The position numbers and the translations under genes are program-made. A stretch of DNA of 64,000 nt from Candidatus Pacearchaeota archaeon. Its GTDB lineage: Archaea > Nanobdellota > Nanobdellia > Pacearchaeales > GW2011-AR1. A model generated the notes under the pieces. It was given only the letters and a program-made list of their open reading frames with translations, did no database searches and was not told the origin of the DNA. Each line of letters begins with the position of its first letter. The first letter of the stretch is position 1. Positions 2 through 62,255 of the stretch are shown one piece after another. The stretch is taken from the NCBI GenBank assembly GCA_017609175.1, contig JAFCEJ010000003.1, positions 77,817 through 141,816 of the forward strand, given 5' to 3'.

Positions 2-1627
2 TCAGCAACAGAAACTTACAAACTAAGTGATGGTTCATATGTGGGTATTAAAGAAATAAATACCCAGGATTATGCTGGTGGAATAAAGCAAGTAGAATTT
101 AGCATTGGTAAAGGAAAGTTAGAATTAACACATGGTTCAGCTGTAGAATTGAATGATAAGACCATTGACGATTTGTATGCCTACATAACTTTAGGTAATA
201 GTGGTTCAAAGAGAACCTTACAAAAGATAGTTATTAGATGGCAAACAGAAGAGGAAACATTTTTGACACCTGAACAAGAATTGTTAATGCCTGGATTTGA
301 AGCAGTTAAATTAACAATGGGTGAAACAACTTTCCCTGCTAAAGAAACTACTACTGTTACTTATTCTGGAGATGAAGTAATTGAAATAAAAACAACCATT
401 AAAGATGGTGAAGTTACAATACCAATATTATATGCAAGCACAGTAGTTGGTGGTAATTTCACTGGAATTGGTAAAGCAGCTGATGAAACATTAGCAACAT
501 CAAATACATCTGAATTGATATATAATGCAACATCAGGTGCAGATGCTGGTTTTGTAGTATCTTGGGCAAATGCAAGAGATAGTGAATCTTATTATCTAAA
601 AGCAACAGTATCAAGGGATTCTACAACATATGTAAACAAGACAACAATTACAAATAAAGTAACAGGTGAAACTGTTTGTAAGGACCTTGACCCTGCTTCA
701 AGCAGTACTTGTACTATAGGAAATGTCATTTTAACAATTAATGATGTTGATTATACATCTGGAGGGGATAGAATCGTTAATATGAGTGTTAACAGCGGAG
801 GTTCGTTCCACGAACTTTATACTGCAGAAGGTTTGAAGATTTACTTGCCTTTTGGTAGTGCGTCAGCAAATACAACTGGAACAACAGAAAAAGGTTGGAT
901 AAGTCTAAACCAAACTGATGCGAATATGTACAGTGCAGGATATGGCCCAACACAATTCACATTGTGGTTCTCAGAAGAAGATAAAAATGGAGATTTGGAC
1001 CAAAAAACATTTAATGTAACTCTAACATCAAGTGGAACAAGCACAAATAGAGTTACAGTAAGTGCTGTACAAGGAGATGGTACTGCTTATGAAACAGCAA
1101 GTAGTTCAAAGATTTGGAGATCTTATGTTGAATCTGAACTTGCTACTAAGATTGACTGGGATAAAACAAATAGTGACCAATATTCTGTAGATTTAGAATA
1201 CCATGGCGGTGAAGTTTATGCAAACTTGTTTGTAACTGCTCCAAGCGTTACAGTTACAACAGGTAGTGAAGGAGTAACTTCATTAGGTGACATTATTGTT
1301 AAAGACACAGAAGTTTCATCTGTACAAGGTAAAAATTTGATTGTTGTAGGTGGAAGTTGTGTTAATAGTGTTGCTGCTAAGTTAATTGGTGGGGCACACT
1401 GTGGTGCTGCATGGGAAGAAGCAACAGGAGTAGGTGCAGGACAATACCTAATCCAAAGCTTTGATAATCCTTATGCAGACGGCGATGAAATTGCTCTATT
1501 AGTTGCAGGATATGAAGCTGCAGACACTGTAAATGCCCAAAAGGCATTATTAGCAAACACAGTCGACACAACTGTTGGTAAGAAATACACTGGTACAACA
1601 TCTGCTGATTTAACAGAAGCAGCATAA
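2..1627 (+). CDS. Cell-surface (S-layer-like) Thr/Ser-rich protein, C-terminal part; 5' end lies outside the window
   Basis: The reading frame is open from nt 2 with no in-frame stop upstream of the GTG at 41. It is Thr/Ser/Asn-rich with repetitive beta-strand-like composition. The C-terminal module is conserved-looking (GGSCVNSVAAKLIGGAHCG...ALLVAGYEAADTVNAQKAL). It has no C-terminal TM. Confidence 0.55.
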   Translation, partial: SATETYKLSDGSYVGIKEINTQDYAGGIKQVEFSIGKGKLELTHGSAVELNDKTIDDLYAYITLGNSGSKRTLQKIVIRWQTEEETFLTPEQELLMPGFEAVKLTMGETTFPAKETTTVTYSGDEVIEIKTTIKDGEVTIPILYASTVVGGNFTGIGKAADETLATSNTSELIYNATSGADAGFVVSWANARDSESYYLKATVSRDSTTYVNKTTITNKVTGETVCKDLDPASSSTCTIGNVILTINDVDYTSGGDRIVNMSVNSGGSFHELYTAEGLKIYLPFGSASANTTGTTEKGWISLNQTDANMYSAGYGPTQFTLWFSEEDKNGDLDQKTFNVTLTSSGTSTNRVTVSAVQGDGTAYETASSSKIWRSYVESELATKIDWDKTNSDQYSVDLEYHGGEVYANLFVTAPSVTVTTGSEGVTSLGDIIVKDTEVSSVQGKNLIVVGGSCVNSVAAKLIGGAHCGAAWEEATGVGAGQYLIQSFDNPYADGDEIALLVAGYEAADTVNAQKALLANTVDTTVGKKYTGTTSADLTEAA

Positions 1628-1749: not shown

Positions 1750-2334
1750 ATGAAAATGAGAACTATGAAAAAAATAACTTCAAAACAAGAAAAAAGCAGA
1801 AAAAAGAATCGAAATCAATTAATAGTAGGTTTAATCCTTATTGGGGTTATGTTATTTAGTGTGATAGGATATTCTTTCCAGGGAAGTGGGGGAAATGTTA
1901 ATAAAAAAATAAAATATAATGGTTTTGAATTCATAAAACAAGGAGATTTTTGGGTTTTAAACATTAATAACAATAATTTCGTCTTTAAATACAATCCAGA
2001 AGAAGTAGAAAAAATCAATGAATATCTAACCCCCCTAAATGGGTATTATGACCAACCGCTCTATATTTTTTCAGAAAGTAATGCGGCAGAATTAGAAATT
2101 TATAGAAATCTGAATCTTTTTGTTCAAAGAATTCAAAAGGCGTGTCCTGAAGGAGAGAAAAATTGTGGAGAGAATGACCCCTTTAAAACATGCAAGGATA
2201 ATTTTATTATTATTAAGGAAAGCAATTCTTCAAAAATATATCAGGAAGAAAATTGTGTTTTCATAGAAGGAAAACAAGAAGATTTAGTTAAGCTTTCTGA
2301 TGGATTTTTGTTTAAGATATTTGGCATAAAATAA
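1750..2334 (+). CDS. Membrane-anchored extracellular Cys-containing protein (paralog A)
   Basis: It has a basic N-terminus, one TM helix (LIVGLILIGVMLFSVIGY) and a 4-Cys ectodomain. Its architecture matches the next gene. Confidence 0.5.
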   Translation: MKMRTMKKITSKQEKSRKKNRNQLIVGLILIGVMLFSVIGYSFQGSGGNVNKKIKYNGFEFIKQGDFWVLNINNNNFVFKYNPEEVEKINEYLTPLNGYYDQPLYIFSESNAAELEIYRNLNLFVQRIQKACPEGEKNCGENDPFKTCKDNFIIIKESNSSKIYQEENCVFIEGKQEDLVKLSDGFLFKIFGIK

Positions 2335-2376: not shown

Positions 2377-3030
2377 ATGAAAAAAACAAAAGATAAGGAA
2401 AAACAAATTGAAAATAAAAACGATGATAAAAAACAAAAAGAAATACAAAACCAACAGTTAAAAAGAATATTGATTACAGGTAGTGCAATAATTATTGTCT
2501 TTTTGTTAGGTTTTGCAATTATTAATTCTATACGGCATTTTGAATATAGGGGGCTCAAATTTAATGTTGTAAAAGAGGGTCGTTTAGTGTTTTACAATGT
2601 TGTTTTTCCAATATATTCATCTGTTACAGGAAAGCATGTAGCAGATTATAATATCTATTTAAGAAAAGACCCAAGAAAATTAGAAAAAATTCCTTTTGAT
2701 GGAAAAATGAATTTAGATACTCCGTTAAGAAAAATGGTATTTGAAAGCAAGTATGAAAAAAACTGTGAAGGAGATTTTAATATTGCAATAGCTAATTTTG
2801 TAAAATCATTTGGGTTAATTGGAATCCAAGTGATTAAAGATGAAAATGCTTCGTGCGATTCTTATGGGAGATATATGTATATAGTGTTGCAGGAAGGAAA
2901 TGAAACAAGCATAGAACAATTTGGGCCTGCATGTTATAATATAAATATAAAAGATTGTGAAATATTAGAAGGAACAGAAAGATTTATTGTTGAAGCGTTT
3001 TCAGAATTTGATAATAAGATTTATTATTAA
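2377..3030 (+). CDS. Membrane-anchored extracellular Cys-containing protein (paralog B)
   Basis: It has a Lys-rich N-terminus, one TM helix and a Cys-containing ectodomain. Motifs align with paralog A (YNGFEF/YRGLKF, CPEGEKNC/KNCEGD). Confidence 0.5.
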   Translation: MKKTKDKEKQIENKNDDKKQKEIQNQQLKRILITGSAIIIVFLLGFAIINSIRHFEYRGLKFNVVKEGRLVFYNVVFPIYSSVTGKHVADYNIYLRKDPRKLEKIPFDGKMNLDTPLRKMVFESKYEKNCEGDFNIAIANFVKSFGLIGIQVIKDENASCDSYGRYMYIVLQEGNETSIEQFGPACYNINIKDCEILEGTERFIVEAFSEFDNKIYY

Positions 3031-3031
3031 A

Positions 3032-3514
3032 ATGATTGATTTAAAATTAATTTATGCTATTCTTCTCACCCTTATGCCAGTAACAGAATTAAGGGTTGGG
3101 CTTCCCATGGCCATTACATATGCTATAGAAAATGAAATTCCCATAATCCTTATTTTCTCGACGGTAGTATTATTAAATATACTTATAATTTTTTTTATAT
3201 TTTATTTTTTAGACAATCTTCATGAAGTTTTTATGAATGTTCGAATTTACAAGAAACTTTTTGAAGCTTATTTGAAAAGATTTCAAAAGAGAGTTGATAA
3301 ATTTGAGAAAAAATATGAAACAAGTGGTTTTCTTGCTTTAATGTTATTTGTTGCAATACCTCTTCCAGGAACAGGGGCATGGAGCGGGTGTCTTGTTTCA
3401 TGGTTGTTGGGTTTAGAAAGGAAAAAAAGCATCTTGGCCATAGCTACAGGAATAATAATCGCAGGGATTCTCGTTCTTTTTGGAACATTAGGATTTATTA
3501 ATTTATTTCTTTAA
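3032..3514 (+). CDS. Small multidrug-export-like membrane protein (COG2426 / PF06695-like)
   Basis: It carries the PLPGTGAWSG motif typical of this family and 4 TM segments. The start was moved to the ATG at 3032, directly after the upstream stop; the tracked start at 2987 overlaps the previous gene. Confidence 0.6.
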   Translation: MIDLKLIYAILLTLMPVTELRVGLPMAITYAIENEIPIILIFSTVVLLNILIIFFIFYFLDNLHEVFMNVRIYKKLFEAYLKRFQKRVDKFEKKYETSGFLALMLFVAIPLPGTGAWSGCLVSWLLGLERKKSILAIATGIIIAGILVLFGTLGFINLFL

Positions 3515-4015
3515 ACTCCTAAGATATTTGATATCAGAATAAAAAGGGATTTGTTTTATTTTATATAATCTGACCTCTGCAAACCAGATACCGATAACAA
3601 AAATAGTACTTAATAAATACCAAAATACCTCGTGAGCCAAATCAAAAAAATTAGAACCTGTAAAAAGCAACAGACTTAAGAAAAAAATCCTTAAAACATT
3701 CAAGATTAAAAAAACTATAAAAGACAGAAAAATCAATCTAATCCTTTTTTTGAATTTTATTCCGGGTGTTGATAAATTTAGAATTAATAATAAGTAATAG
3801 GCAGCGCCGGCAATGCAAGAGGGAATCAATTCAATTGAAAAATTGTTAAATGAAACAATATTTCCTGTCAAAGAAGAGTCAAAGAAAATATTTAATAAAG
3901 CATATGTTAGGTAAATCGTTAATGGGGTAAAGACAGAATAAAAGAGAGAAAGGTTCGGTACTGAAACAATTAATAGGATAAAGTATCTAACTAAAATGCT
4001 CTTTGTGTTATTCAT
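3503..4015 (-). CDS. Exosortase/archaeosortase family protein (compact, about 170 aa)
   Basis: It is polytopic with about 5 TM. It has a conserved Cys in IPSCIAGAAYY (compare the CSG motif of exosortases) and an Arg in NVLRIFFLSLL (compare the NALRI motif). It sits adjacent to a surface protein with a C-terminal TM plus basic tail. Confidence 0.55.
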   Translation of the reverse strand: MNNTKSILVRYFILLIVSVPNLSLFYSVFTPLTIYLTYALLNIFFDSSLTGNIVSFNNFSIELIPSCIAGAAYYLLLILNLSTPGIKFKKRIRLIFLSFIVFLILNVLRIFFLSLLLFTGSNFFDLAHEVFWYLLSTIFVIGIWFAEVRLYKIKQIPFYSDIKYLRSLKK

Positions 4016-4063
4016 ATTTTTTGGATGGGAAACCTATTTAAATAATTTAACCTTAAACAGAAC

Positions 4064-4684
4064 ATGAGAAAAAAAGTGTGTGTTTTTTTGGTTATTGCTG
4101 CATTAATATTAATCAGTTTTCAATATGATTATTGGATTGTTAAACAAATTTCTTCGGTAAGGAACGGTTCTTTGGATAATTTTTTTTTAGGAATTACTTT
4201 CATTAGTTCTGAAGTAATAATTTTCCTTTTTTTAACAAGTTTATTTTTGTGGAATGAGAATAAAAGAAAATGGATATTCCCTTTGTGGTTTACATTATTT
4301 GCATCTATGATAACTAGTTTTATTTTGAAATTTTTAATTCAAAGACCAAGACCTTTTCAATTAGGGCTTGTTTCAATAATGCCCATTTTAGAAAGAGCGA
4401 GTTTCTCTACATGGAATTTTTCTTTCCCGTCATTTCAGGCAATGTTTGTTTTTAGTGCTGTTCCTATTTTATCAAAAGAGTTTCCAAGATTAAAAAAATT
4501 TTGGCTTGTTCTAGCCATTTTAATAGGATTTTCAAGAGTTTATTTTGGACTTCATTTTTTAAGTGATGTTCTTACAGGGGGGCTAATAGGATATTTTATT
4601 GGAATTTGGATTATTAAATTAGAAAAAGAAGAAAAATTTGGTGAAGAAATATTGAAAAGATTAATTAAATTTATAAAAAAATAA
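4064..4684 (+). CDS. PAP2 family lipid phosphatase (motif 2 variant)
   Basis: KX6RP motif (KFLIQRPRP) and SRX5HX3D motif (SRVYFGLHFLSD) are present. The PSGH motif is replaced by PSFQ. It has 6 TM. Confidence 0.7.
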   Translation: MRKKVCVFLVIAALILISFQYDYWIVKQISSVRNGSLDNFFLGITFISSEVIIFLFLTSLFLWNENKRKWIFPLWFTLFASMITSFILKFLIQRPRPFQLGLVSIMPILERASFSTWNFSFPSFQAMFVFSAVPILSKEFPRLKKFWLVLAILIGFSRVYFGLHFLSDVLTGGLIGYFIGIWIIKLEKEEKFGEEILKRLIKFIKK

Positions 4685-4691
4685 ATTAAAT

Positions 4692-6362
4692 CTAACTTCT
4701 TGCAACTCTAATTGCTACAATTATTATTATAACGATTAAGATTACATTCAGCAATCCAATTCCCCATAAATACCAGTTATCTTCTGCAATTACAGACCCT
4801 GTAATTTCTGGGAATTCAAATCCAGTTGATTCCTCGACTGTTACTGAAACTGCTTGTCTTAAAGTTTCTTTTTCACTGTCACCAGTCTTTATTTCAATAT
4901 TAAATGTTTTAGAACCTGAAACATCCTTATTTACTTTAAACTTATATATAACTTCTACTGATTCTCCAGCACCTAAAACAACTATTGCAGGATTTATGTC
5001 CTTTAAACTTGCCCAAGATTCATAGCCGCTTGCTTGTAAAGTATAGGTTGCTTCTTCTGTTCCTGTATTTGTAATTGTTGATTTTATTGTAAGTTCTTTG
5101 CCTGCTTTTGCTTCAGATTCTAAGGTTGCAGAAACTGATGCATGAGGCGCAATTTTACAATTTCCTTCTACATTAAGTGGAACAATAAATAATGCTTCGT
5201 CTTCATCATAGTCATTTTCATAAATATCGTTATCTTCGTCATAAACTCTAAATTCAAGGGAATATTTTCCTTCATCAGCATCTTCAGATATTAAAATATT
5301 TGTAGAAAATTCTTCCTTGTCAAATGAATCAATATCTCCGATTTCTACTTTTTGGTTTATGCCTAATTCTTTATTGTAAATCATGATGTAAACATCCTCT
5401 TGATCATCATCACCAATATTCCAAACATCTCCTGCAATTTGCACATCCATACCACATTGAGCTGTTTCTACAATTTTAATATCGTCTAAGATAACAAAAT
5501 CATCTTCAATTTCCATTGTTAATTCTTCAGAATCATATGCACAGATTTCATTATCATCTGCATCTTCTCCAGTAGCCCATACATAAAATTCATAATCCCC
5601 GTCTTCTAATTCATCTATATCATCATCTAATTTAAAAGAAAGCACAATTTCCTTATCAGTCCTTTTCTTTAAGTTAAAATCATTTTCTTCGTCATCAAGA
5701 TACCATTCTCCTGTTGCAGTATTATATATCCCCCATCCAACAATTATATCTTTTATTTTTTCATCCCTGTTATTGTTCTCCACATTTATCTTTACTTCAA
5801 CCTCATCAAAAGGGAACCACTCATTATCTTTTCCAAATCCTTTAATAACTTTAATATCATCTATTTCTATTGATAAATCATTATTTGGATTTCCTGTTGT
5901 CCTACAAGTTAATACTTCCTCTGGCAAGGGGAGTTGAGTTACTGTAATTGATACTGGGATAGTATAAGAATGTATGTTGAGATATTTTCCCACTACTTCT
6001 AATTCTCCAGTATAAGTACAAACATCTTGGGTTTCAGGAATATTAAATGTGACTGTAACAAGACCACTTGTTTCATTTTTTGTTAAACTTGTTGGAGCAC
6101 CAGTAATAGTAAGTTCAGAGTTGAATGATTTTGAACATCCTGTGAGAACGATAGGAGAAGTAAATGCGATTTCGGTAATCTCGTTAATATTGCTTTCTTT
6201 TAGATAAAAAGATAATGTTACTTTAGAACCCTGGTCTGCTGATGCCTTAAGTTCGCTTAATTCAGTATTATTTGCATCAACAAACTTTATGCTAGCACTA
6301 GCCAGTCCGATTGACAAAATTGCTGTCAATAAAAACAATGCAAGTACTTTTGTTTTCATCAT
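4692..6362 (-). CDS. Secreted acidic repeat surface protein with signal peptide and C-terminal TM anchor plus basic tail
   Basis: N-terminal signal peptide MMKTKVLALFLLTAILSIGLASA. Internal D/E-rich repeats and a CARDB/DUF11-like segment are present. The C-terminus is FEFPEITG...LWGIGLLNVILIVIIIIVAIRVARS. Confidence 0.65.
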   Translation of the reverse strand: MMKTKVLALFLLTAILSIGLASASIKFVDANNTELSELKASADQGSKVTLSFYLKESNINEITEIAFTSPIVLTGCSKSFNSELTITGAPTSLTKNETSGLVTVTFNIPETQDVCTYTGELEVVGKYLNIHSYTIPVSITVTQLPLPEEVLTCRTTGNPNNDLSIEIDDIKVIKGFGKDNEWFPFDEVEVKINVENNNRDEKIKDIIVGWGIYNTATGEWYLDDEENDFNLKKRTDKEIVLSFKLDDDIDELEDGDYEFYVWATGEDADDNEICAYDSEELTMEIEDDFVILDDIKIVETAQCGMDVQIAGDVWNIGDDDQEDVYIMIYNKELGINQKVEIGDIDSFDKEEFSTNILISEDADEGKYSLEFRVYDEDNDIYENDYDEDEALFIVPLNVEGNCKIAPHASVSATLESEAKAGKELTIKSTITNTGTEEATYTLQASGYESWASLKDINPAIVVLGAGESVEVIYKFKVNKDVSGSKTFNIEIKTGDSEKETLRQAVSVTVEESTGFEFPEITGSVIAEDNWYLWGIGLLNVILIVIIIIVAIRVARS

Positions 6363-6512: not shown

Positions 6513-6520
6513 AATTGAAA

Positions 6521-6526
6521 GGAGGT
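6521..6526 (+). promoter_or_regulatory. Shine-Dalgarno-like GGAGGT
   Basis: GGAGGT lies 9 nt upstream of the ATG at 6536. Confidence 0.4.
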
Positions 6527-6535
6527 AAAATAAAG

Positions 6536-6922
6536 ATGGCTTTAAAATCTAAGGAAAATACTTTAGGAGCATGGGCTTTTTTAATTGGTGTAGTTTTGGC
6601 AATAATCATTGGACTAAGTACATCATTGATTTCAATTCCTACATTGACAAAATATAGTTCATCAATATATGCGATTCTAACAATATTGGGTATAATTGTT
6701 GGTTTCATGAATGTTACAAGCAAAGATTCTCAAACATTCTTAGTCGCTGGTGCTATATTAGTTATTGTGAGTAAATTTGGAATGGAAAGTGTCACTGGCT
6801 CTTTGATAGGAATTGGTGTAGGAAGTATTGTAACATCAATATTTGGAGCATTGTTAGCATTGTTTGTTCCTGCAACAATAATAGTAGCATTAAAAACAGT
6901 GTTTGGAATTGCTAAGGTTTAA
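6536..6922 (+). CDS. Small polytopic membrane protein
   Basis: It has 4 hydrophobic helices. The start was chosen at the ATG after the SD; the tracked ORF starts 21 nt earlier. Confidence 0.55.
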   Translation: MALKSKENTLGAWAFLIGVVLAIIIGLSTSLISIPTLTKYSSSIYAILTILGIIVGFMNVTSKDSQTFLVAGAILVIVSKFGMESVTGSLIGIGVGSIVTSIFGALLALFVPATIIVALKTVFGIAKV

Positions 6923-14445: not shown

Positions 14446-15864
14446 ATGAATATTTTTACAATTTTTGATATAGGGTTTTTAATCTTGTTTGGCCTATTTT
14501 TAACTATATTTCTTTATTCTCGACGAAAAAAATTGAAGAGAGAAGGATTATTATATCTATATCGAACAAAATGGGGAATAAAATTAATTAACTATGTTGG
14601 TGAAAAATATAAAAGAACCTTGCATGTTTTGAGTTATATTTCTGTTGGGTTAGGTTATATTCTAATGGCAGTTATGTTATATCTTTTAGGAAAGATTGTT
14701 TATCTTTATATCGCATTTCCGCAGATTGTGAGAACCATTAAAGTTCCGCCGATAATGCCATTAATACCTTATCTTCCTCAAATGTTTAAACTTGATTTTC
14801 TACCACCATTTTATTTTACATATTGGATAATCATTATTGCGATAATTGCAATCACTCATGAATTTGCTCATGGTATTTTTTCTAGATATGCTGGTGTTAA
14901 AGTAAAAGCAACTGGCTTTGGATTTTTAGGTCCGTTTTTAGCGGCATTTGTAGAACCAGATGAAGAACAAATGGAAAAAAAGAGTAAGTTTTCGCAATTA
15001 GCAATTCTTTCTGCAGGAACATTTGCGAATATTTTAACAGCAATTTTCTTTTTGGCAGTTTTATTTATTTTCTTTTCTGTTGCTTTCAGCCCCTCAGGAG
15101 TTATTTTTGATACTTATTCATATTCTGCTGTAGATATTGCAAGCATATCTGCAGTAAATGGGGTTGTTGTTGAAAATCCAACTTATGAAAAAATTTTGAA
15201 TTTGGTTGATGGGAAAAAATTTGATGAAATTGAAACAACCAATGGAAAATATTTTGCAACAAGAGAGGTTTTAGAGCAACAAGAAGATAATGAAAATTTT
15301 TTGATTTTATATGACGATGCTCCTGCAATAAATGCAGAATTAGTCGGAGCAATAACAGAATTAAATGGTGTTAAAATAAAAAATATTGAAAATTTAAAAA
15401 ATGAACTTGAAAAATACTCTCCAGGAGAGAAAGTAATTGTCAAAACAAAAACGAGTAATGGAACTTCTGAATATGAAATCGTTCTTGGAGAACATCCGGA
15501 TAAAGAAAATGTCGCTTGGCTTGGAATTGGATTTTTTGCCCAAGAAAGCAGAGGAGTATTTGGAAAAATATATGATATTTTATCGTCTTTTAAAGAAGAC
15601 CACGTTTACTATGAACCAAAACATGAAACAATGATTTTTATTTATAATTTATTTTGGTGGATTATTCTTATAAGCATAAGTGTTGCGCTTGTCAATATGC
15701 TTCCTGTTGGAATTTTTGATGGTGGAAGAGTCTTTTATCTTACTGTTTTAGCAATTGTTAAAGACGACAAAATAAGAGCAAAAAAAATTGTTTCATTGGT
15801 AAGTAATTTATTTTTATTCATTTTATTAATATTAATGTTCTTTTGGTTCTTTGCGTTTAGATAA
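14446..15864 (+). CDS. Site-2 protease family (M50) membrane metalloprotease with PDZ-like domain
   Basis: It has HEFAHG (HExxH) within a TM region, multiple TM helices and a central soluble domain. Confidence 0.75.
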   Translation: MNIFTIFDIGFLILFGLFLTIFLYSRRKKLKREGLLYLYRTKWGIKLINYVGEKYKRTLHVLSYISVGLGYILMAVMLYLLGKIVYLYIAFPQIVRTIKVPPIMPLIPYLPQMFKLDFLPPFYFTYWIIIIAIIAITHEFAHGIFSRYAGVKVKATGFGFLGPFLAAFVEPDEEQMEKKSKFSQLAILSAGTFANILTAIFFLAVLFIFFSVAFSPSGVIFDTYSYSAVDIASISAVNGVVVENPTYEKILNLVDGKKFDEIETTNGKYFATREVLEQQEDNENFLILYDDAPAINAELVGAITELNGVKIKNIENLKNELEKYSPGEKVIVKTKTSNGTSEYEIVLGEHPDKENVAWLGIGFFAQESRGVFGKIYDILSSFKEDHVYYEPKHETMIFIYNLFWWIILISISVALVNMLPVGIFDGGRVFYLTVLAIVKDDKIRAKKIVSLVSNLFLFILLILMFFWFFAFR

Positions 15865-40652: not shown

Positions 40653-43382
40653 ATGAATGAATTAGATAAAAACGATTTGATAGAAGAAAGAAAAAAGAAA
40701 ATAATTAATCTCTTAAATAAACAAAAAGATTGGGTTTATTATACAATTCTGGGATTTATTGTTTTAGTTTCAATATATATAAGGTCGAGAAATATTTCAA
40801 AATTAAAAGATATTACTACAGGAACTTGGACATTGGGCCCTGACTTAGACCCTTTTTTATTCTTGAGGTGGGCAGAATACATTGTTGAGCATGGAAAATT
40901 AATGGCAATTGATACTATGAGGTATGTCCCATTAGGATTTGATACTGCTTATGAAATGAGATTGCTTCCATATTTAATTGCATGGTTTCATAAATTTCTC
41001 TCATTTTTTTCTTTGAGTGATAGTGTAACATATTCTGCAATAATTTTTCCTGTTTTTATGGCCGGATTAACAGCTATTGCGTTTTTTCTTTTTGCAAGAA
41101 AAATATTTTACAAAGAGGATAGAAAAACGAAAAACATAATTGCTTTAATTGCAACAGGTTTTTTTATTTTAGTACCATCTCTATTGCCAAGAACAATAGC
41201 AGGGATTCCTGAAAAAGAATCTGCTGCTTTCTTTTTTATGTTTATGGCGTTTTATTTCTTTTTAGAAGCATTTACCTCTGAAAAAATGAAAAAAAGTTTA
41301 GTTTTTGGGATTTTAGCTGGAATAACAACAGGATTAATGGCATTGATTTGGGGAGGCGCAACATTTGTTTTTATGAGTATTGGTGGAGCTGTTTTCTTTG
41401 CATTCGTCTTGGGAAAAATAACAACAAAAAGATTTTATTCTTATGGTTTATGGATTTTATTTTTTATGATTCTTATGGTTCCTTTTTCTACAAGATATTC
41501 TTTAATGAATTTGATAACATCAATTAGTACAGGCTTAAATTTTTTGATATTTTTCATAATTTTAACAAATTTCATTTTATTTGAAAAATTAAAATTTAAT
41601 AAAAAAATAAGAATTGATAACATACCAAAACAAATAATTTCAACAGCTATTTCTGTGGTAATTATCCTTATTTTAACTTCAATCTTTTTTGGAATTGGAT
41701 TTAATATAAACCAGTTTAAAGAAATTTTAGAAAGAACCGTTCATCCTCTGAGCACAACAAGATTCGCTCTCACAGTTGCAGAAAACAGGCAACCTTATTT
41801 TGTAAGTGATTGGAAAAATAGCCTTGGCCCAATTGTTTATAATATTCCGTTATTCTTTTGGTTATTTTTTATTGGTTCTATAGCAATGTTTAATCATTTA
41901 ATTAAAAGATTGAGAAAAAAAGAAAAGTTTATCTTAACATTCAGTTATACTGCCTTTTTATTTTGCCTTATATTCAGCAAATATTCTCCAAACAGTATTT
42001 TAAATGGAGAAAGTGGATTGAGCCTATTTGTTTATTTTGGCGGGGTATTATTTTTCATTGGAAGTTTTATATATCTTTATTTTAAAAAATATCATGAAGG
42101 GACTTTTCATAATTTCAAAGAATTTAATTTTTCATATATATTATACTTCACAATTTTAACAATGGCTATTGTAGGTGCGAGGGGGGCGGTAAGATTAATT
42201 ATGGTGTTGGCAGCAATTAGTCCAGTCGCAATTTCTTTTTTATCTGTTAAAATTTCACAAAGAGCAATTAAAGAACAAGAAGAAACAACAAAATTCTTTG
42301 TTAGATTAGCTGCGATAATAATTATCCTCATGGTGGTGCTTACACTCTGGACATATTATAAGCAGGACAGATATACCTCAGAAAATTTCGCTCCGAGTAT
42401 GTATAATATGCAATGGCAAAAAGCAATGAGTTGGGTCAGAGAGAATACTTCAAAGGATGCTGTTTTTGCCCATTGGTGGGATTATGGTTATTGGATCCAA
42501 AGTATTGGTGAAAGAGCAACAATTTTAGATGGAGGAAATGCGATTGTCTATTGGAATTATTTAATGGGAAGGTATGTCCTAACAGGAACAAATGAAAAAG
42601 ATGCATTAGAATTTCTTTATACCCACAATGGAACACATCTTTTAATTGACTCGACAGAACTTGGAAAGTATACTGCCTTTTCAAGCATCGGTTCTGATGA
42701 AAATTATGACAGGTTCTCCTGGATTACTAACTTTTTTATGAATGAGAAACAAACCCGTGAAACAAAGGATGAAATAATATATACTTATTTTGGTGGGGCA
42801 TTAGTTGATGAAGATATAATTTGGAGTGAAAATGGAAAAGACATTTTCCTTCCTGAAAGAAAAGCAAGTGTCGGAGCAATTATTTTAAGAAAAGATAAAA
42901 CAGGAAAAATTCTCCAACCAGAAGCAATTTTTATATACAACAATCAGCAATATAGAATTCCATTAAGATATGCTTATTATAAAAATAAATTATATGACTT
43001 TGGTTCTGGATTAGATGCAGGAATATTTATTTATCCAAAAGCAGATATAACAAGAGACAATAACATAAGAATTAATGAAATAGGTGCGTTGTATTATCTT
43101 AGCAAAAGAACAATTCATTCAAACTTAATTAACCTATATTTATTTGACAAAAAATCAGAATATTTCAAATTAGTCCACACTGAAAGTAATTTAATAGTTG
43201 AAAATCTAAGACAACAAGGACAGGATATGGGAGAATTCATATATTATCAGGGATTTCAGGGGCCGATTAAAATCTGGGAGATAAATTATCCAGAAAACAT
43301 AAAACCAAACCAAGAATATCTTTTGAAAACATATCCAAATAAAAAATTAGAAATTGCAGATAAAAGTAAATACAATAATTAA
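40653..43382 (+). CDS. aglB: Archaeal oligosaccharyltransferase AglB (STT3)
   Basis: It has the WWDYGYWI motif, a 13-TM N-terminal domain and a C-terminal soluble domain. Its length is 909 aa. Confidence 0.95.
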   Translation: MNELDKNDLIEERKKKIINLLNKQKDWVYYTILGFIVLVSIYIRSRNISKLKDITTGTWTLGPDLDPFLFLRWAEYIVEHGKLMAIDTMRYVPLGFDTAYEMRLLPYLIAWFHKFLSFFSLSDSVTYSAIIFPVFMAGLTAIAFFLFARKIFYKEDRKTKNIIALIATGFFILVPSLLPRTIAGIPEKESAAFFFMFMAFYFFLEAFTSEKMKKSLVFGILAGITTGLMALIWGGATFVFMSIGGAVFFAFVLGKITTKRFYSYGLWILFFMILMVPFSTRYSLMNLITSISTGLNFLIFFIILTNFILFEKLKFNKKIRIDNIPKQIISTAISVVIILILTSIFFGIGFNINQFKEILERTVHPLSTTRFALTVAENRQPYFVSDWKNSLGPIVYNIPLFFWLFFIGSIAMFNHLIKRLRKKEKFILTFSYTAFLFCLIFSKYSPNSILNGESGLSLFVYFGGVLFFIGSFIYLYFKKYHEGTFHNFKEFNFSYILYFTILTMAIVGARGAVRLIMVLAAISPVAISFLSVKISQRAIKEQEETTKFFVRLAAIIIILMVVLTLWTYYKQDRYTSENFAPSMYNMQWQKAMSWVRENTSKDAVFAHWWDYGYWIQSIGERATILDGGNAIVYWNYLMGRYVLTGTNEKDALEFLYTHNGTHLLIDSTELGKYTAFSSIGSDENYDRFSWITNFFMNEKQTRETKDEIIYTYFGGALVDEDIIWSENGKDIFLPERKASVGAIILRKDKTGKILQPEAIFIYNNQQYRIPLRYAYYKNKLYDFGSGLDAGIFIYPKADITRDNNIRINEIGALYYLSKRTIHSNLINLYLFDKKSEYFKLVHTESNLIVENLRQQGQDMGEFIYYQGFQGPIKIWEINYPENIKPNQEYLLKTYPNKKLEIADKSKYNN

Positions 43383-43383
43383 A

Positions 43384-44379
43384 ATGGAGAAAATATTATT
43401 AATTCCAATTTTATTAAGTTTTTTTGTAACATTATTTTTCATTCCTGTTTGGATAAAAAGAGCGAAAAAATCTGGAATTATTGGAAAAGATATGAATAAA
43501 CTTTCAAAGAAAGAAATAGCAGAAGCAGGCGGTATTCCAATACTTTTTGCCTTCACCTTGGGGGTATTAACATATATTGCTATAAAAACATTTTATTTTA
43601 AAGCGACAGAAAATTTAATTGAAATTTTTTCTTTATTAAATGTTATTTTAATAATTGGTCTTGTAGGGCTTGTAGATGATATTCTTGGATGGAAAATTGG
43701 ATTGAATAAAAAAATTAGGATTTTCTTTTTATTTTTTGCAGCAATTCCTTTAATGGTAATAAATGCGGGGGAGTCAATGATGATGGGAATTGAATTTGGG
43801 TTATTATATCCCTTACTTTTTATTCCATTGGGGATCATTGGTGCTTCTGCCACATTTAATTTTTTAGCAGGATATAATGGGTTAGAAGCAAGTCAAGGAA
43901 GCTTGATTTTATTTGCATTAGCAATTGTAACATGGTTTACGAATAATGGTTGGTTAAGCATAATTTGTCTAATTATGACTGTTTGTTTAATTGCTTTTTA
44001 CATTTTTAACAAATATCCTGCAAAAGTTTTTCCGGGAGATAGTTTAACATACCCTGTTGGAGCATTAATTGCGACAATAGCAATTTTAGGAAATATTGAA
44101 AAAATTGCTGTTTTCTTTTTTATCCCATATGTTCTTGAAACAGGGTTAAAATTAAGAGGAAATTTAAAAAAACAGAGTTTTGCCAAAATAAATGAAGATG
44201 GGAGCCTGGAAATGCCCCATGAAAAAATATATGGGTTAGAACATTTGGCAATAAAAATTTTAAAAAAAATAAAAAAAGACCATAAGGTTTATGAAAAAGA
44301 TGTGGTTTATTTAATAAATTTGTTTCAAATCCTAATAATAATTGTAGGTTTTTTGATTTTTAGAAATTACTTGTTTTAA
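43384..44379 (+). CDS. aglH: UDP-HexNAc:dolichyl-phosphate HexNAc-1-phosphate transferase (GPT/WecA/MraY family, AglH-like)
   Basis: It has the VDDILGW DDxxG motif and multiple TM. The start was moved to 43384 because the tracked start at 43354 overlaps aglB. Confidence 0.85.
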   Translation: MEKILLIPILLSFFVTLFFIPVWIKRAKKSGIIGKDMNKLSKKEIAEAGGIPILFAFTLGVLTYIAIKTFYFKATENLIEIFSLLNVILIIGLVGLVDDILGWKIGLNKKIRIFFLFFAAIPLMVINAGESMMMGIEFGLLYPLLFIPLGIIGASATFNFLAGYNGLEASQGSLILFALAIVTWFTNNGWLSIICLIMTVCLIAFYIFNKYPAKVFPGDSLTYPVGALIATIAILGNIEKIAVFFFIPYVLETGLKLRGNLKKQSFAKINEDGSLEMPHEKIYGLEHLAIKILKKIKKDHKVYEKDVVYLINLFQILIIIVGFLIFRNYLF

Positions 44380-44380
44380 G

Positions 44381-45610
44381 ATGTTGAAAAAAATATTCTC
44401 GAATGAGTTGTATAAAGGAAGCATAATTTTAATTATTCTGTTAAATTTAGGAAATTTTTTTGGATATCTGTTTCAGTTTACTATGGCCCAACTACTTGGT
44501 CCAATTCTATACGGTGCTTTTGCTGTAGTTACAAATATTATTTTAGTTTTTGGAGTCCCGCTAATATCAATACAAACCATTGTTGCAAAACATACTGCTA
44601 AATTTAATGCCCAAAAAAATATTAGAAAAATAAAGGGACTATTTTTATTCCTCATAAAAAAGGTAATGATTATAGCGATAATTATCTTTTTTATTTTTAG
44701 TCTAATTTCTTTGTTTTTATCAAAATATCTTGGGATTAGTGTAGGTGTGTTAATTCTGACAGGATGTTTTATATTCGGAGGATTTTTACAATCAATTGGA
44801 CTCGGAATATTACAAGGATTAAAAAAGTTTAATGCATTAGGATTTAGTATTTTTGTTAATGGTTTTTTCAAATTTTCAATTGGTGTTTTTCTTGTCCTTT
44901 TAGGTTTGAAAATTTATGGAGCAGTACTTGGTTTTATCTTTGGAATAATAATCTCATTTATAATCGCCCTTTTATTTATAAAAGATGTTTTAAAAGCTAA
45001 AAAAACTGAAGAGAAAATAGATATCTTTATGAAAAATAATAGAATTGATTTTTTTGCGATGTTTATTTTTGTATTTATTTTCAGTTTAGATGTCATTTTT
45101 GCAAAAGCATTTTTCTCTCCAGAAATTGCAGGAAAATATGCCGTAATTTCAATGATCGGAAAGATAATTTTATTTTTTACAATGGCAATAGGAAATGTAA
45201 TGCTTCCTATAAATTCAGAAAAATTTGCAAAAGGACACCAAACAAAAAGAGTTTTTAGAAAATCTGTTTTATTAATTTGTTTAATCTGTGGAATTTCACT
45301 ATTTTTCTTTTTGTTGTTTCCAGAGTTAATTGTGAAAATATTATTCGGGGAGGAGTATATTTCTGGTTCAAATATCCTTCTTTATATCGGCATTGCTTTT
45401 AGCTTTATCTCCCTAATAAATATCTTTTTGCTTCAGATGATTTCTACAGATAAATTCAAAAAAAACCATTTGATTATAATGATTTTGCTTCTTGGATTAC
45501 AAATAATGATTTTTTCAATGTTTCATAAAACTATAGAACAATTTAGTATGGGATTTATGTTCTCCACAATAATAAGCTTTATAGGGGTACTTTTATTGTC
45601 TAAAAAATGA
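44381..45610 (+). CDS. Oligosaccharide flippase (Wzx/MOP superfamily, AglR-like)
   Basis: It has 12 TM and the polysaccharide biosynthesis protein pattern. Confidence 0.7.
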   Translation: MLKKIFSNELYKGSIILIILLNLGNFFGYLFQFTMAQLLGPILYGAFAVVTNIILVFGVPLISIQTIVAKHTAKFNAQKNIRKIKGLFLFLIKKVMIIAIIIFFIFSLISLFLSKYLGISVGVLILTGCFIFGGFLQSIGLGILQGLKKFNALGFSIFVNGFFKFSIGVFLVLLGLKIYGAVLGFIFGIIISFIIALLFIKDVLKAKKTEEKIDIFMKNNRIDFFAMFIFVFIFSLDVIFAKAFFSPEIAGKYAVISMIGKIILFFTMAIGNVMLPINSEKFAKGHQTKRVFRKSVLLICLICGISLFFFLLFPELIVKILFGEEYISGSNILLYIGIAFSFISLINIFLLQMISTDKFKKNHLIIMILLLGLQIMIFSMFHKTIEQFSMGFMFSTIISFIGVLLLSKK

Positions 45611-48262: not shown

Positions 48263-49720
48263 ATGAAAGTTTTCATAAGTTATCCCCCATTAAAATCCGA
48301 GAAAGGAACTGCACAAATAGGACAAAACAGGCAGTTTCAATGGTTTAGCCAGCATTCTGTCATTTATCCAATGGTTCCGGCATATGCAGCGACCCTTTTA
48401 TCCAAAAAAGGTTATGATGTTTTTTGGGATGATGCTATTGCTAAAAAAGAAAGTTATGAGAAATGGATTGGAAGAGTTTCGAGAATAAAGCCAGATGTCA
48501 TTGCAATTGAAACAAAAACGCCTGTCGTTAAAATGCACTGGAAAGTAATCGAAGACATAAAAAAGAAATCGGCAAAAACAAAAATAGTCTTAATGGGAGA
48601 CCATGTAACAGAGTTTCCAAAAGAAAGTTTAGAGAATTCTAAAACCGATTTTGTCATAACAGGGGGGGATTATGATTTTGGATTATTATCAATTTGTGAA
48701 TATTTATCAAAAAACAAAAAACTTGGGAAGGGAATATGGTATAAAAAAAAGAACAAAATAAAAAACACTGGTAAATTTGAATTATCCCATGATTTAAATG
48801 ATTTACCTTTCATTGATAGAGAGTTAACAATGTGGTATCTCTATAAAGAAAATGGAAATTACAAATATTTGCCGGGAACATACATTATTGCAGGAAGAGA
48901 CTGCTGGTGGGGAAAATGTAAATTTTGTTCATGGCCAAATCTTTTTCCAAAATATAGGACAAGAAAACCAGAACTAGTGCTTGAAGAAATTAAATTTCTT
49001 GTGGAGAAATATGGAATAAGAGAGATAATGGATGACACGGGAACATTTCCTGTCGGAGATTGGTTAAAAAAATTCTGTAAATTAATGATTAAGTCTGGAT
49101 TAAATAAAAAAGTAAGAATAAGTTGCAATATGAGATTTGGTGTTTTAAAATTAGAAGACTACAAATTAATGAGAAAAGCAGGATTTAGATTTTTATTATT
49201 TGGTTTAGAATCCGCAAACCAGGAAACCTTAGATAAAATCAACAAAGGAATAAAAGTTAAGGATATTGAAGAGGGTTGTAAATGGGCAAAACAAGCAGGA
49301 TTAAATCCGCATCTAACATGCATGATTGGTTATCCTTGGGAAAATTATGAAATGGCAAAAAGAACTATTGATTTAGCAAAAAAACTTTTTAATAAAGGTT
49401 ATGCAGACACACTTCAAGCAACAATAATAATACCATACCCAAATACTCGGTTATATAAAGAATGCTTAAAAGAAAATTTATTGGAAGTAAAACAGGGTGA
49501 ATGGGAAAAATTTGATATGAGACAAAAGATCATGAAATCTCCCCTTACAGAAGAAGAGATAAAAGAACTTGTTTCTTCATTATATAAATTAGCCTTTAAT
49601 CCTCGATTTATTTTTAAGCAATTCACCCAGATAAGAAATCTTGATGACATGAAGTATATTTTTAGGGCAGCTAAAAAAATATTGGGCAAACATTTAAAAG
49701 ATTTTTCTAATAGGAGATAA
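48263..49720 (+). CDS. B12-binding domain radical SAM protein (class B radical SAM family)
   Basis: It has an N-terminal cobalamin-binding-like Rossmann domain and then CWWGKCKFCSW (CxxxCxxC). Confidence 0.8.
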   Translation: MKVFISYPPLKSEKGTAQIGQNRQFQWFSQHSVIYPMVPAYAATLLSKKGYDVFWDDAIAKKESYEKWIGRVSRIKPDVIAIETKTPVVKMHWKVIEDIKKKSAKTKIVLMGDHVTEFPKESLENSKTDFVITGGDYDFGLLSICEYLSKNKKLGKGIWYKKKNKIKNTGKFELSHDLNDLPFIDRELTMWYLYKENGNYKYLPGTYIIAGRDCWWGKCKFCSWPNLFPKYRTRKPELVLEEIKFLVEKYGIREIMDDTGTFPVGDWLKKFCKLMIKSGLNKKVRISCNMRFGVLKLEDYKLMRKAGFRFLLFGLESANQETLDKINKGIKVKDIEEGCKWAKQAGLNPHLTCMIGYPWENYEMAKRTIDLAKKLFNKGYADTLQATIIIPYPNTRLYKECLKENLLEVKQGEWEKFDMRQKIMKSPLTEEEIKELVSSLYKLAFNPRFIFKQFTQIRNLDDMKYIFRAAKKILGKHLKDFSNRR

Positions 49721-51992: not shown

Positions 51993-53693
51993 TCATCTTT
52001 TTCGACTTACCAAAAAATTTCCTATCGCTAAATAATCCAGGTTTGTCCCAAGAAAACAATTAATAGCATCCCTCGGAGAATTAACAATCGGTTCTCCTTT
52101 TCTATTGAAACTTGTATTTAAAATTACAGGAATTCCTGTTTCTGACTCAAAAGATTTTATCAATTTCCAATATTTCTCATTAACATCTTTCCTAACTGTT
52201 TGTGGCCTTGTTGTTCCATCTACATGAACCACTGCAGGGATTTCTTTAATTTTTTGTTTGGGAACATCAAAAGAAAGGTTCATAAAAGGAGCATAACAAT
52301 CGTTTATTAAATATTCTTTTCTTGCTTCATCTAACATTGAGGGGCAAAAAGGCCTCCACTCTTCTCTAAACTTTACTGCAATATTAACCCTATCACGAAA
52401 TTTAACATGTCTAGAATCTGCTAAGATGGATCTTGCGCCCAAGGCTCTTGGACCAATTTCTGCCCTACCCTGAAACCACCCAATAACTTTCCCTTTTGTT
52501 AATAGTTCCCCGCATATGCCCGAAATATCATCATATTCACGATATTTTATTTTTTTGTTTTCTTTTATTGTCTTATCTAATTCTTTTTTTAATTCTTCGT
52601 TTGTAAATCCAATTCCAAAATAAACATGTTTCATTTTTTTGAATTTTATCTTGGGTTTTAACTCTTTCTGAATCTGTAATGCAGAACCTAAGGCTAAACC
52701 CCCATCACCACAATGAGGAAAGGGTATAAAATTTATTTCTTCAAAATTATCTCTTATCCTCTTATTTAGTTTTACATTAAGGAAACATCCTCCTGCACCA
52801 ACTAAATTCATATTTCTTGTTTTATTGAGAACATTTGATAACCATTTTAAAATTTGGTCTTCAAAAACTTTCTGTCCTGCTGCAGCAGTATTTTTACTCC
52901 CATATTTATAACTTAAGAATCTAAAATATGCTGCTTCTGCTACAGATCCTCTTAATTGATTATTTATCCACCCCCCGTATAAATTCCAATATCTTCCACT
53001 AAACCCAAGCCCTTTTGCTTTCGGAACAAGTTTATATGCCTCTTTGCTTGCAAATTTTGGATCCCCATATGCTGCTAAGCCCATTACTTTATATTCATCA
53101 TTATAGATAGAGAATCCCAACCCATCTGTAAGAGCTTCATAATAATGGCCCATTGAACCGCTTTCATAAATATTTTTGATTCTCTTTATTCCCTTAGATA
53201 CCGAGTAGTTAACACTTCCAGATAGGCCATTTCCAATACCATCCAATGTAACTATTGTTGCTTTATCAAAACCAGACGTATAAAAAGCTGAAGCGGCATG
53301 AGCCAAATGGTGTTCTACTCCGAGTATTTTTTTTGATTTTACAAAGTGATTAATTTTTGAATAGATATTTCCCTTACCCGCTTCTTTCTTTAAAAGCATT
53401 TTAATCAATTTTAAAATATATTCTGGCCTTCCAATGTTGTCAAAGGCGGTAGCAATCATCCTTCCAATACCATATTTAGAAGGGATTGCAATATAATCAA
53501 CATCCTCTAAAGAAATTCCTTCAAAATCAAGAACAAATTTTGTTGATAATTCTGGAAAATCCATGCCCCAATGTTTTATCCGAGTAAACCGTTCTTCATC
53601 TGCAGCAGCAACTATTTTGCCATCTTTTATTAAAGCGGCTCCTGCATCATGATGGGTATGTAAACCAAGAATGTACATATTAATTACTTTCAA
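51993..53693 (-). CDS. Carbamoyltransferase (NodU/CmcH family)
   Basis: N-terminus MYILGLHTHHDAGAALIKDGKIVAAADEERFTRIKH (Kae1-like fold). Its length is 566 aa. Confidence 0.85.
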   Translation of the reverse strand: MKVINMYILGLHTHHDAGAALIKDGKIVAAADEERFTRIKHWGMDFPELSTKFVLDFEGISLEDVDYIAIPSKYGIGRMIATAFDNIGRPEYILKLIKMLLKKEAGKGNIYSKINHFVKSKKILGVEHHLAHAASAFYTSGFDKATIVTLDGIGNGLSGSVNYSVSKGIKRIKNIYESGSMGHYYEALTDGLGFSIYNDEYKVMGLAAYGDPKFASKEAYKLVPKAKGLGFSGRYWNLYGGWINNQLRGSVAEAAYFRFLSYKYGSKNTAAAGQKVFEDQILKWLSNVLNKTRNMNLVGAGGCFLNVKLNKRIRDNFEEINFIPFPHCGDGGLALGSALQIQKELKPKIKFKKMKHVYFGIGFTNEELKKELDKTIKENKKIKYREYDDISGICGELLTKGKVIGWFQGRAEIGPRALGARSILADSRHVKFRDRVNIAVKFREEWRPFCPSMLDEARKEYLINDCYAPFMNLSFDVPKQKIKEIPAVVHVDGTTRPQTVRKDVNEKYWKLIKSFESETGIPVILNTSFNRKGEPIVNSPRDAINCFLGTNLDYLAIGNFLVSRKR

Positions 53694-62187: not shown

Positions 62188-62255
62188 AAACAGATAAAAA
62201 GAAAGAGATTTTTAAATTTGATTAGTTTTATAAACTTTCTTTTTTAATTAAAAGA

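Follow-up and report, generated by a model that had tools for sequence, protein, structure and literature searches.

A predicted archaeosortase dedicated to one adjacent surface protein in a Pacearchaeota-type DPANN archaeon

A 64,000-nucleotide (nt) stretch of a Candidatus Pacearchaeota genome assembly (contig JAFCEJ010000003.1, forward-strand positions 77,817 to 141,816; called here the window) encodes a small membrane enzyme of the exosortase/archaeosortase family, the pacearchaeosortase, and close to it a surface protein with a C-terminal sorting signal. Very probably, these genes form an archaeosortase system, from a DPANN archaeon of the Pacearchaeota type, that is dedicated to one substrate and in which the surface protein would be cleaved near its C-terminal membrane helix and attached to a membrane lipid. 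We analysed the window together with 80 genome loci, each covering 6 kb on either side of a sortase homologue. The window has a G+C content of about 29% and encodes archaeal FtsZ, L11, Spt5 and SecE-type proteins (read from translations) as well as L1, L10 and AglB/STT3; it therefore comes from a low-GC archaeon. An earlier reading of the letters of the window (the original prediction) had placed three open reading frames (ORFs) here, for a compact archaeosortase-like protein, a PAP2 phosphatase and the surface protein, and their coordinates and strands were confirmed. The features on which the argument rests are the following (aa, amino acids):

3503–4015, minus strand: pacearchaeosortase, 170 aa, predicted intramembrane cysteine protease or transpeptidase of the exosortase/archaeosortase family (NF033505, TIGR04178)
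3815–3817, minus strand: codon of Cys67, at the outer end of helix 65–82 and predicted to be the catalytic nucleophile (from invariance)
3689–3691, minus strand: codon of Arg109, the Arg of an N-x-x-R motif in helix 88–119 (from invariance)
3632–3634, minus strand: codon of His128, third member of the putative Cys/Arg/His triad (from invariance)
4064–4684, plus strand: membrane phosphatase of the PAP2 family, 206 aa, an accessory whose gene lies between those of the substrate and the sortase on the opposite strand (PF01569)
4692–6362, minus strand: PACE-CTERM protein, 556 aa, putative S-layer or surface protein and predicted sole substrate (NF033506)
6294–6362, minus strand: Sec-type signal peptide of the substrate, MMKTKVLALFLLTAILSIGLASA, with a hydrophobic segment at residues 7–25 and a predicted cleavage site
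4695–4805, minus strand: C-terminal sorting signal, aa 520–556, made of ITG, a linker, NWYLWGIGLLN, a hydrophobic helix and RVARS (from the tail hidden Markov model, HMM)

The 170-aa protein was matched by the NCBIfam model NF033505 ('pacearchaeosortase', cut-off 80 bits) with 215.1 bits, its residues 6–165 aligning to positions 3–162 of the 167-position profile, and it passed the superfamily signature TIGR04178 with 31.5 bits over residues 68–147 (cut-off 23 bits). Both matches bear out the archaeosortase-like assignment of the original prediction. The protein database contained 1120 homologues at E ≤ 1e-3, several of which are named pacearchaeosortase by NCBI; the closest other sortase is 69% identical. 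The Cys and Arg signature positions that had been noticed in the single sequence were recovered as Cys67 and Arg109, which, together with His128, are invariant in 26/26 members of an alignment of the family (56–69% identical to the query). Cys, Arg and His are nearly invariant throughout the superfamily and constitute its inferred catalytic triad (bioRxiv 10.1101/2023.06.07.544157). From spacing, and not from an alignment to ArtA, the archaeosortase of Haloferax volcanii, we infer that Arg109 is the counterpart of ArtA Arg214, the Arg following the Cys by 42 residues here and by 41 residues in ArtA.

The pacearchaeosortase resembles ArtE (TIGR04124), ArtD (TIGR04175) and XrtH (TIGR04177) in being compact (the profiles of these families have 150–160 residues) and can be aligned with them over nearly its full length, but it scored far below their cut-offs (41.5 versus 95 bits for ArtE, 25.1 versus 86 for XrtH and 17.2 versus 125 for ArtD). 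Its scores for the heimdallarchaeosortase model and others were likewise far below the cut-offs, and the protein therefore belongs to a distinct subfamily.

The sortase had been called polytopic, and several hydrophobic segments were indeed found by hydropathy analysis and in an AlphaFold2 model built from the family alignment (predicted local distance difference test, pLDDT, 79.7; predicted template-modelling score, pTM, 0.70). The model contains helices at residues 3–45, 65–82 (with Cys67 at its start), 88–119 (containing Arg109), 124–150 (with His128 at its start) and, at the C-terminus, 157–169, and a small three-stranded sheet at residues 48–62. The mean number of Lys and Arg residues per family sequence is 3.85 in the N-terminal tail, 4.92 in the loop 83–93 and 7.38 in the C-terminal tail, and the loops 46–64 and 120–127 are acidic across the family. 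Because of this positive-inside charge pattern and of the modelled helices, the sortase is predicted to cross the membrane four times, with both termini inside and the three catalytic residues facing outward, which is the side where the tail of a Sec-exported substrate would be. No relative of the sortase was found in the PDB by sequence, and none by fold at E ≤ 0.001.

An invariant I-P-x-Y-S-D motif (I156, P157, Y159, S160 and D161) was also observed in the tail of the sortase (residues 156–170, window 3503–3550). It lies outside the catalytic signature, on the predicted cytoplasmic tail, and might serve for the docking of a partner.

The 556-aa protein was matched by NF033506 ('PACE-CTERM-PROT, putative S-layer protein', cut-off 110 bits) with 414.2 bits, residues 156–555 aligning to positions 218–626 of the 627-position profile; the match is confined to these positions and leaves out the N-terminal 155 residues or so of the protein. 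The closest other substrates are 58–60% identical. An AlphaFold2 model of the protein (pLDDT 86.3) shows four beta-sandwich domains (residues 25–142, 163–283, 290–399 and 408–510), a disordered linker (511–529) that holds the ITG residues, and a helix (530–555) that opens at WYLW. As had been described, this surface protein is acidic (110 Asp or Glu residues versus 42 Lys or Arg) and ends in a hydrophobic transmembrane (TM) helix, which extends to residue 551, followed by a basic tail, R-V-A-R-S.

The conservation of this C-terminal region was determined with the substrate homologues of 72 related loci and 43 more from the protein database. The conserved tail starts with (G)-I-T-G (51–72%), continues through six to nine variable residues to N-W-Y-L-W-G-I-G-x-L-N, which runs into the TM helix, and terminates with the consensus R/K-x-x-R/K-K. 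Conservation reaches 91% at N529, 91% at W533, 95% at I535, 93% at G536, 95% at N539, 98% at L542 and 100% at I546. A strongly hydrophobic 17-mer was present in 43/43 substrate homologues, as were two to five Lys or Arg residues among the last eight residues of the protein. The NWYLWGIGxLN signature directly abuts the TM helix with no spacer, and in the signals cut by membrane-embedded sorting enzymes, such as PGF-CTERM and PEP-CTERM, the motif likewise abuts the TM segment (bioRxiv 10.1101/2023.06.07.544157). The positions of N539, L542 and I546 (i, i+3, i+7) suggest that one face of the helix may be read within the membrane. The original prediction had also pointed to a PEF-like motif upstream of the helix, a proposal that was not upheld, the FEFPE residues in question not being conserved (Pro518 is present in 16% of the sequences and the column of Glu519 is gapped in 49%). 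A PEF-CTERM-type signal was accordingly rejected: FEFPE precedes the helix by 10 residues and belongs to the disordered linker. As a separate observation, N539 (window 4746–4748, 95% conserved) places a polar Asn inside the TM helix of the substrate.

How regularly the two genes occur together was determined from a genome scan in which a sortase alignment served as the query. Relatives of the sortase were found in 373 species genomes, and conservation of the neighbourhood was counted over the 80 loci examined, with sortases of 48–67% identity. In 74 of these 80 loci, a substrate gene was present no more than about 6 kb from the sortase gene, always on the same strand and upstream of the sortase. 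Each of the 74 loci contained exactly one tail-bearing protein; the six loci that contained none include several short or truncated contigs (L003, L019, L030 and L066). Similarly, when the tail HMM was run over all six-frame ORFs of the window, the 556-aa protein was recovered alone with 81.9 bits, the runner-up reaching 9.7 bits at a position that is not C-terminal. Dedicated one-to-one sorting systems with adjacent genes are a recognized category (bioRxiv 10.1101/2023.06.07.544157), and a single tail protein per locus and in the window is the pattern expected of such a system. In conclusion, the pacearchaeosortase and the PACE-CTERM protein are very probably a dedicated one-enzyme, one-substrate system. 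The original prediction had counted a lack of other proteins with the same signal against a sorting role; this does not apply here, because a single substrate is what a dedicated system is expected to have.

Some of the database labels attached to these genes are unexpected. The homologues named pacearchaeosortase by NCBI come from Pacearchaeota, 'archaeon' and Thorarchaeota metagenome-assembled genomes (MAGs), and the Thorarchaeota-labelled ones are probably mis-binned. Some homologous proteins (P0034 and P0196 among the labelled cases) carry Thorarchaeota or Heimdallarchaeota labels, and the whole cassette was found on contigs labelled 'Patescibacteria group bacterium' (L053, JAHYJW010000002.1) and 'uncultured Vicingus sp.' (L074, CAYRAD010000265.1). 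Such odd labels on cassette contigs and proteins probably stem from mistakes in the binning or the taxonomy of public MAGs.

In the window, the start of the sortase gene is separated from the stop of the surface protein gene by 676 nt, in agreement with the 700 bp or so estimated previously, and this interval is occupied by the PAP2 gene. The genes are tightly packed: the start codons of the sortase and PAP2 genes are divergent and separated by just 48 nt, the PAP2 and substrate genes are convergent with stop codons 7 nt apart (4685–4691), and on its other side the sortase gene shares 12 nt (3503–3514) with the 3' end of a convergent Sm_multidrug_ex gene. When the PAP2 gene is present, the sortase cannot simply be co-transcribed with its substrate.

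The PAP2 protein contains a PF01569 domain (75.3 bits, cut-off 27.2). Its best similarities in NCBIfam are models of undecaprenyl-diphosphatases, which it matched far below their cut-offs (NF047884 SepP, 41.9 versus 250 bits; NF008813, 38.1 versus 229 bits). Motif C1, KxxxxxxRP (K89, R96 and P97; window 4328–4354), and motif C3, SRxxxxxHxxxD (S157, R158, H164 and D168; window 4532–4567), are intact and are conserved in the sequences compared. Motif C2 is PSFQ and not PSGH (residues 122–125, window 4427–4438), the catalytic His being replaced by Gln. Over 42 sequences, comprising that of the window and those of 41 related loci, the position of this His is occupied by Gln in 22, by His in at least 12, by Arg in 2 and by Asp in 2; this relaxation of C2 may reflect an altered chemistry or a loosened requirement.

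Among the 74 loci that hold both the sortase and the substrate, 37 have a PAP2 gene, always at the same position between the two and always on the opposite strand. In the other 37 loci, the sortase and substrate genes are mostly 43–800 nt apart. A converse, PAP2-centred scan of metagenomes with a PAP2 alignment detected 473 relatives, and in the best 80 of these the sortase gene was immediately adjacent to PAP2 in 66/66 loci with room for it, with the substrate gene on the other side in 53/56. Thus, in the close relatives examined, PAP2 of this clade is confined to the cassette, yet the cassette lacks PAP2 half of the time, and PAP2 is therefore a clade-specific accessory and not a core component. 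Of the minimal sorting and lipid-anchoring cassette suggested by the original prediction, the pairing of the enzyme with its substrate is borne out, and PAP2 as a constant part is not.

We propose the following mechanism. The 556-aa protein would be exported by means of its Sec signal peptide and would at first be retained in the membrane through the C-terminal helix, its four beta-sandwich domains lying outside. The pacearchaeosortase would recognize the NWYLWGIGxLN signature and, inside the membrane, the conserved helix face, and Cys67 would attack the substrate near the signature, so that the C-terminal helix is removed. The resulting acyl-enzyme would be resolved by the amine of a membrane lipid, leaving the surface protein covalently anchored to that lipid. 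PAP2 would be an optional lineage-specific accessory, most likely an outward-facing polyprenyl- or lipid-diphosphate phosphatase for envelope biogenesis, with no required step in sorting. Cleavage and lipid anchoring are proposed here by analogy with Haloferax ArtA. This enzyme is reported to cleave PGF-CTERM and to be required for lipid attachment (PMC7157517); Cys173 is described as its active-site residue (PMC7157517; PMC9263693), Cys173, Arg214 and Arg253 as critical by mutagenesis (PMC9263693), and resolution of its thioester intermediate by archaetidylethanolamine has been proposed (PMC7157517; PMC9263693).

Several points weigh against this interpretation. The cleavage site, the lipid acceptor and the lipid attachment itself would all be extrapolated from a distant paralogue: ArtE was matched below its cut-off, as given above, and no match of the sortase to an ArtA model was listed at E ≤ 1 in NCBIfam. 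No PssA/PssD-type lipid-headgroup Pfam match was found among the window ORFs scanned, and an ethanolamine-lipid acceptor is therefore unsupported here. The uncharged 35-residue first helix of the sortase (within residues 3–45) could make two passes or a hairpin, which would invert the topology. The 'S-layer' label of the substrate is unproven, since a Foldseek search with its model against the PDB gave generic Ig-domain arrays only (HYDIN/CFAP65 and alpha-2-macroglobulin), with no S-layer protein among the 50 matches listed. As Gln takes the place of the C2 His in PAP2 and in roughly half of the related proteins, an ordinary phosphatase chemistry is not assured. Finally, a literature search found no mention of the pacearchaeosortase/PACE-CTERM subfamily and no experimental study of any of its members.

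Other explanations of the locus were considered. Lasting C-terminal TM anchors exist in archaeal S-layers, as in Sulfolobus SlaB, and a fraction of the Haloferax S-layer glycoprotein may stay TM-anchored (PMC6098224), so that the helix could in principle be a permanent anchor that the sortase does not process, with the adjacency of the genes coincidental. This is very improbable, as the two genes lie together in 74/80 loci over sortases of 48–67% identity, the sortase keeps its invariant catalytic set, NF033505 and NF033506 are curated by NCBI as a pair, and conservation of 91% or more at seven positions, N529, W533, G536 and N539 among them, goes beyond what simple anchoring would require. 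We also regard it as unlikely that the sortase is an endopeptidase only, which would release or trim its substrate without adding a lipid and leave it held at the surface by protein contacts, for example with an S-layer-like protein of about 800 aa or with two small membrane-anchored proteins encoded nearby. The lack of PssA/PssD-type genes among the window ORFs scanned favours such an enzyme, although that scan covered 64 kb of the genome only; DPANN archaea are, moreover, generally regarded as having a limited capacity for lipid synthesis, and the other conserved envelope proteins of the cluster are possible partners for a non-lipidated surface protein. The same explanation is favoured by the one-step transpeptidase status of archaeosortases being unsettled even for ArtA (bioRxiv 10.1101/2023.06.07.544157). 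However, the Cys/Arg/His set common to transpeptidating sortases is invariant here, and cleavage and lipidation are coupled in ArtA, the single homologue studied (PMC7157517; PMC6098224).

A further alternative gives PAP2 a true part in sorting and lipid anchoring: in a three-gene cassette, comparable to the artA-pssA-pssD clustering in Methanosarcina, it would prepare or recycle the attached lipid. It might, for instance, act at the outer face and trim a diphosphate lipid or a phospholipid scavenged from a host. The confinement of this PAP2 clade to the cassette among the best 80 of 473 relatives and its unvarying position and orientation argue for such a role; the unusual, relaxed C2 motif beside invariant C1 and C3 hints at a non-standard chemistry, and lipid-headgroup genes syntenic with artA and needed for anchoring provide a precedent (PMC7157517). 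Nevertheless, we find it rather unlikely, because half of the cassettes are without PAP2, their two genes usually lying close together, and the system thus works in its absence. In addition, the whole region is highly syntenic, and the fixed position of PAP2 may reflect shared ancestry and not function. The nearest named relatives of PAP2 are undecaprenyl-diphosphatases, and the window encodes AglB/STT3 and a glycosyltransferase family 4 (GT4) phosphosugar transferase of the MraY/WecA type. AglB and such a transferase imply a dolichyl-diphosphate carrier that has to be dephosphorylated outside the cell, which creates a need for a phosphatase independently of sorting; recycling of this carrier is for that reason the most economical guess for PAP2. 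Substrate-specific glycosylation was also considered as an explanation of PAP2 and is unsupported, as the substrate is not enriched in N-glycosylation sequons (2 observed versus 4.9 ± 2.1 expected).

The proposed dedicated system, an enzyme with its single adjacent substrate, was compared with those already described. It does not differ substantively from the NF033505/NF033506 pair: both window proteins are far above the cut-offs, their homologues are so named by NCBI and the adjacency of the genes fits. With ArtA and PGF-CTERM of Haloferax volcanii it has in common the superfamily signature TIGR04178, a conserved Cys followed at a comparable distance by a conserved Arg (residues 67 and 109, versus 173 and 214 in ArtA), a tripartite C-terminal signal with a motif abutting the TM helix, and a substrate that is a candidate S-layer protein. 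It differs in the size of the enzyme (170 aa versus about 300 aa, the artA gene being 912 bp; PMC7157517), in the signature, which is NWYLWGIGxLN with no PGF motif in the substrate, and in having one adjacent substrate instead of the nine dispersed in H. volcanii (PMC6098224). It also belongs to a DPANN lineage and not, like ArtA, to the Euryarchaeota, and lipid attachment is proposed here by analogy only. The PAP2 protein is similar to the polyprenyl-diphosphate phosphatases of the YbjG/PgpB/BcrC type and to SepP in its PF01569 domain with C1 and C3 intact, and unlike them in its PSFQ motif, in scoring far under the equivalog cut-offs and in being found, in its best 80 relatives, only between a sortase and its substrate.

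The sortase and substrate genes are embedded in a larger conserved cluster, to which a more distant membrane protease is added in the following list:

2–1627, plus strand: S-layer-like protein, the C-terminal 541 aa or so of about 800 aa, cut by the start of the window, with no C-terminal TM helix (PF05124)
1750–2334, plus strand: 194-aa protein with one N-terminal membrane anchor (67/80 loci)
2377–3030, plus strand: 217-aa protein with a Lys-rich N-terminus and one membrane anchor (71/80 loci)
2987–3514, plus strand: membrane protein of the Sm_multidrug_ex family, 175 aa, a neighbour of variable occurrence whose gene converges on that of the sortase (PF06695, 111 bits; 25/80 loci)
6515–6922, plus strand: 135-aa membrane protein, small and polytopic, its gene running divergently from that of the substrate (55/80 loci, 43–79% identity)
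14446–15864, plus strand: membrane metalloprotease of the M50 site-2-protease family (PF02163, 87.7 bits)

The genes for the S-layer-like protein, the 194-aa protein, the 217-aa protein and, optionally, the Sm_multidrug_ex protein follow one another in this order on the plus strand and converge on the 3' end of the sortase gene; the gene for the 135-aa protein sits beyond the substrate gene, on the far side. The S-layer-like protein was matched by PF05124 (S_layer_C) with 29.4 bits (cut-off 23.9) and is present in 60/80 loci. Its frame is open from nt 2 (the ORF is listed as 41–1627), and 12 listed homologues measure 783–857 aa from stop to stop; the two for which the N-terminal sequence was shown start with what look like signal peptides. 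Eight N-x-S/T sequons were counted in the S-layer-like protein. No Pfam or NCBIfam match above threshold was obtained for the 194-aa, 217-aa and 135-aa proteins, and the 194-aa and 217-aa proteins are not detectably paralogous to one another (E = 0.22); these two may be unrecognized envelope-assembly factors. The M50 protein is another intramembrane protease, about 10 kb from the sortase.

The presence of an unanchored S_layer_C protein beside a beta-sandwich protein predicted to be processed by the sortase suggests, speculatively, a two-component envelope. The combination of a large anchor-free surface protein (S_layer_C, about 800 aa) with a C-terminally anchored beta-sandwich protein would resemble the canopy and stalk formed by SlaA and SlaB in Sulfolobales, no sequence or fold match to either of these two proteins having been found. 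Unlike the substrate proposed here, SlaB retains its TM segment, and Sulfolobales are without archaeosortases (PMC6098224). On a still wider view, PAP2 would be an unrecognized helper of archaeosortase anchoring that supplies or recycles the lipid acceptor at the outer face, in a DPANN lineage probably unable to synthesize lipids of its own, and, with the S_layer_C protein and the two unassigned membrane-anchored proteins, the genes would form a complete and portable island for assembling a two-component S-layer in ultrasmall archaea; we hold this to be doubtful, with a low probability.

At the other end of the window, positions 40653–64000 are occupied by a large N-glycosylation or surface-glycan cluster, which also contains many GT2 and GT1 enzymes and methyltransferases. 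Its main members are:

40653–43382: AglB/STT3
43354–44379: GT4 transferase of the MraY/WecA type
44381–45610 and 60670–62187: two Polysacc_synt flippase-like proteins
48263–49720: B12-radical SAM protein
51993–53693: carbamoyltransferase
53726–55273 and 62226–63998: two PMT_2 proteins
57286–58344: SPASM radical SAM protein

The families of the enzyme and of the substrate are known already, as is the pairing of the two: all are encoded in NCBIfam models, and NCBI annotates the homologues accordingly; the exact proteins of the window are already deposited in NCBI/JGI. The pacearchaeosortase system is thus catalogued and essentially unstudied. We know of no archaeosortase outside Haloferax that has been studied, and of nothing published on envelope building by DPANN archaea. 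Our search of the literature found no relevant paper linking DPANN and archaeosortase among the papers listed, and a metaproteogenomic paper on Pacearchaeota makes no mention of S-layers or sortases. Reviews place archaeosortases in Euryarchaeota, or in halophiles and methanogens (PMC6098224; bioRxiv 10.1101/2023.06.07.544157).

Two features of the locus possibly go beyond the family names: the PAP2 protein as a clade-specific accessory that is present in 37/74 cassettes and, when present, is always in the cassette, and the embedding of the pair among conserved genes that include one for a second S-layer-like protein. For reconstitution or structural work, few if any of the available archaeosortase systems are simpler than this enzyme of 170 aa and the one substrate encoded next to it. 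The main value of the finding is that a sorting enzyme and its substrate could be recognized as a pair from raw sequence alone.

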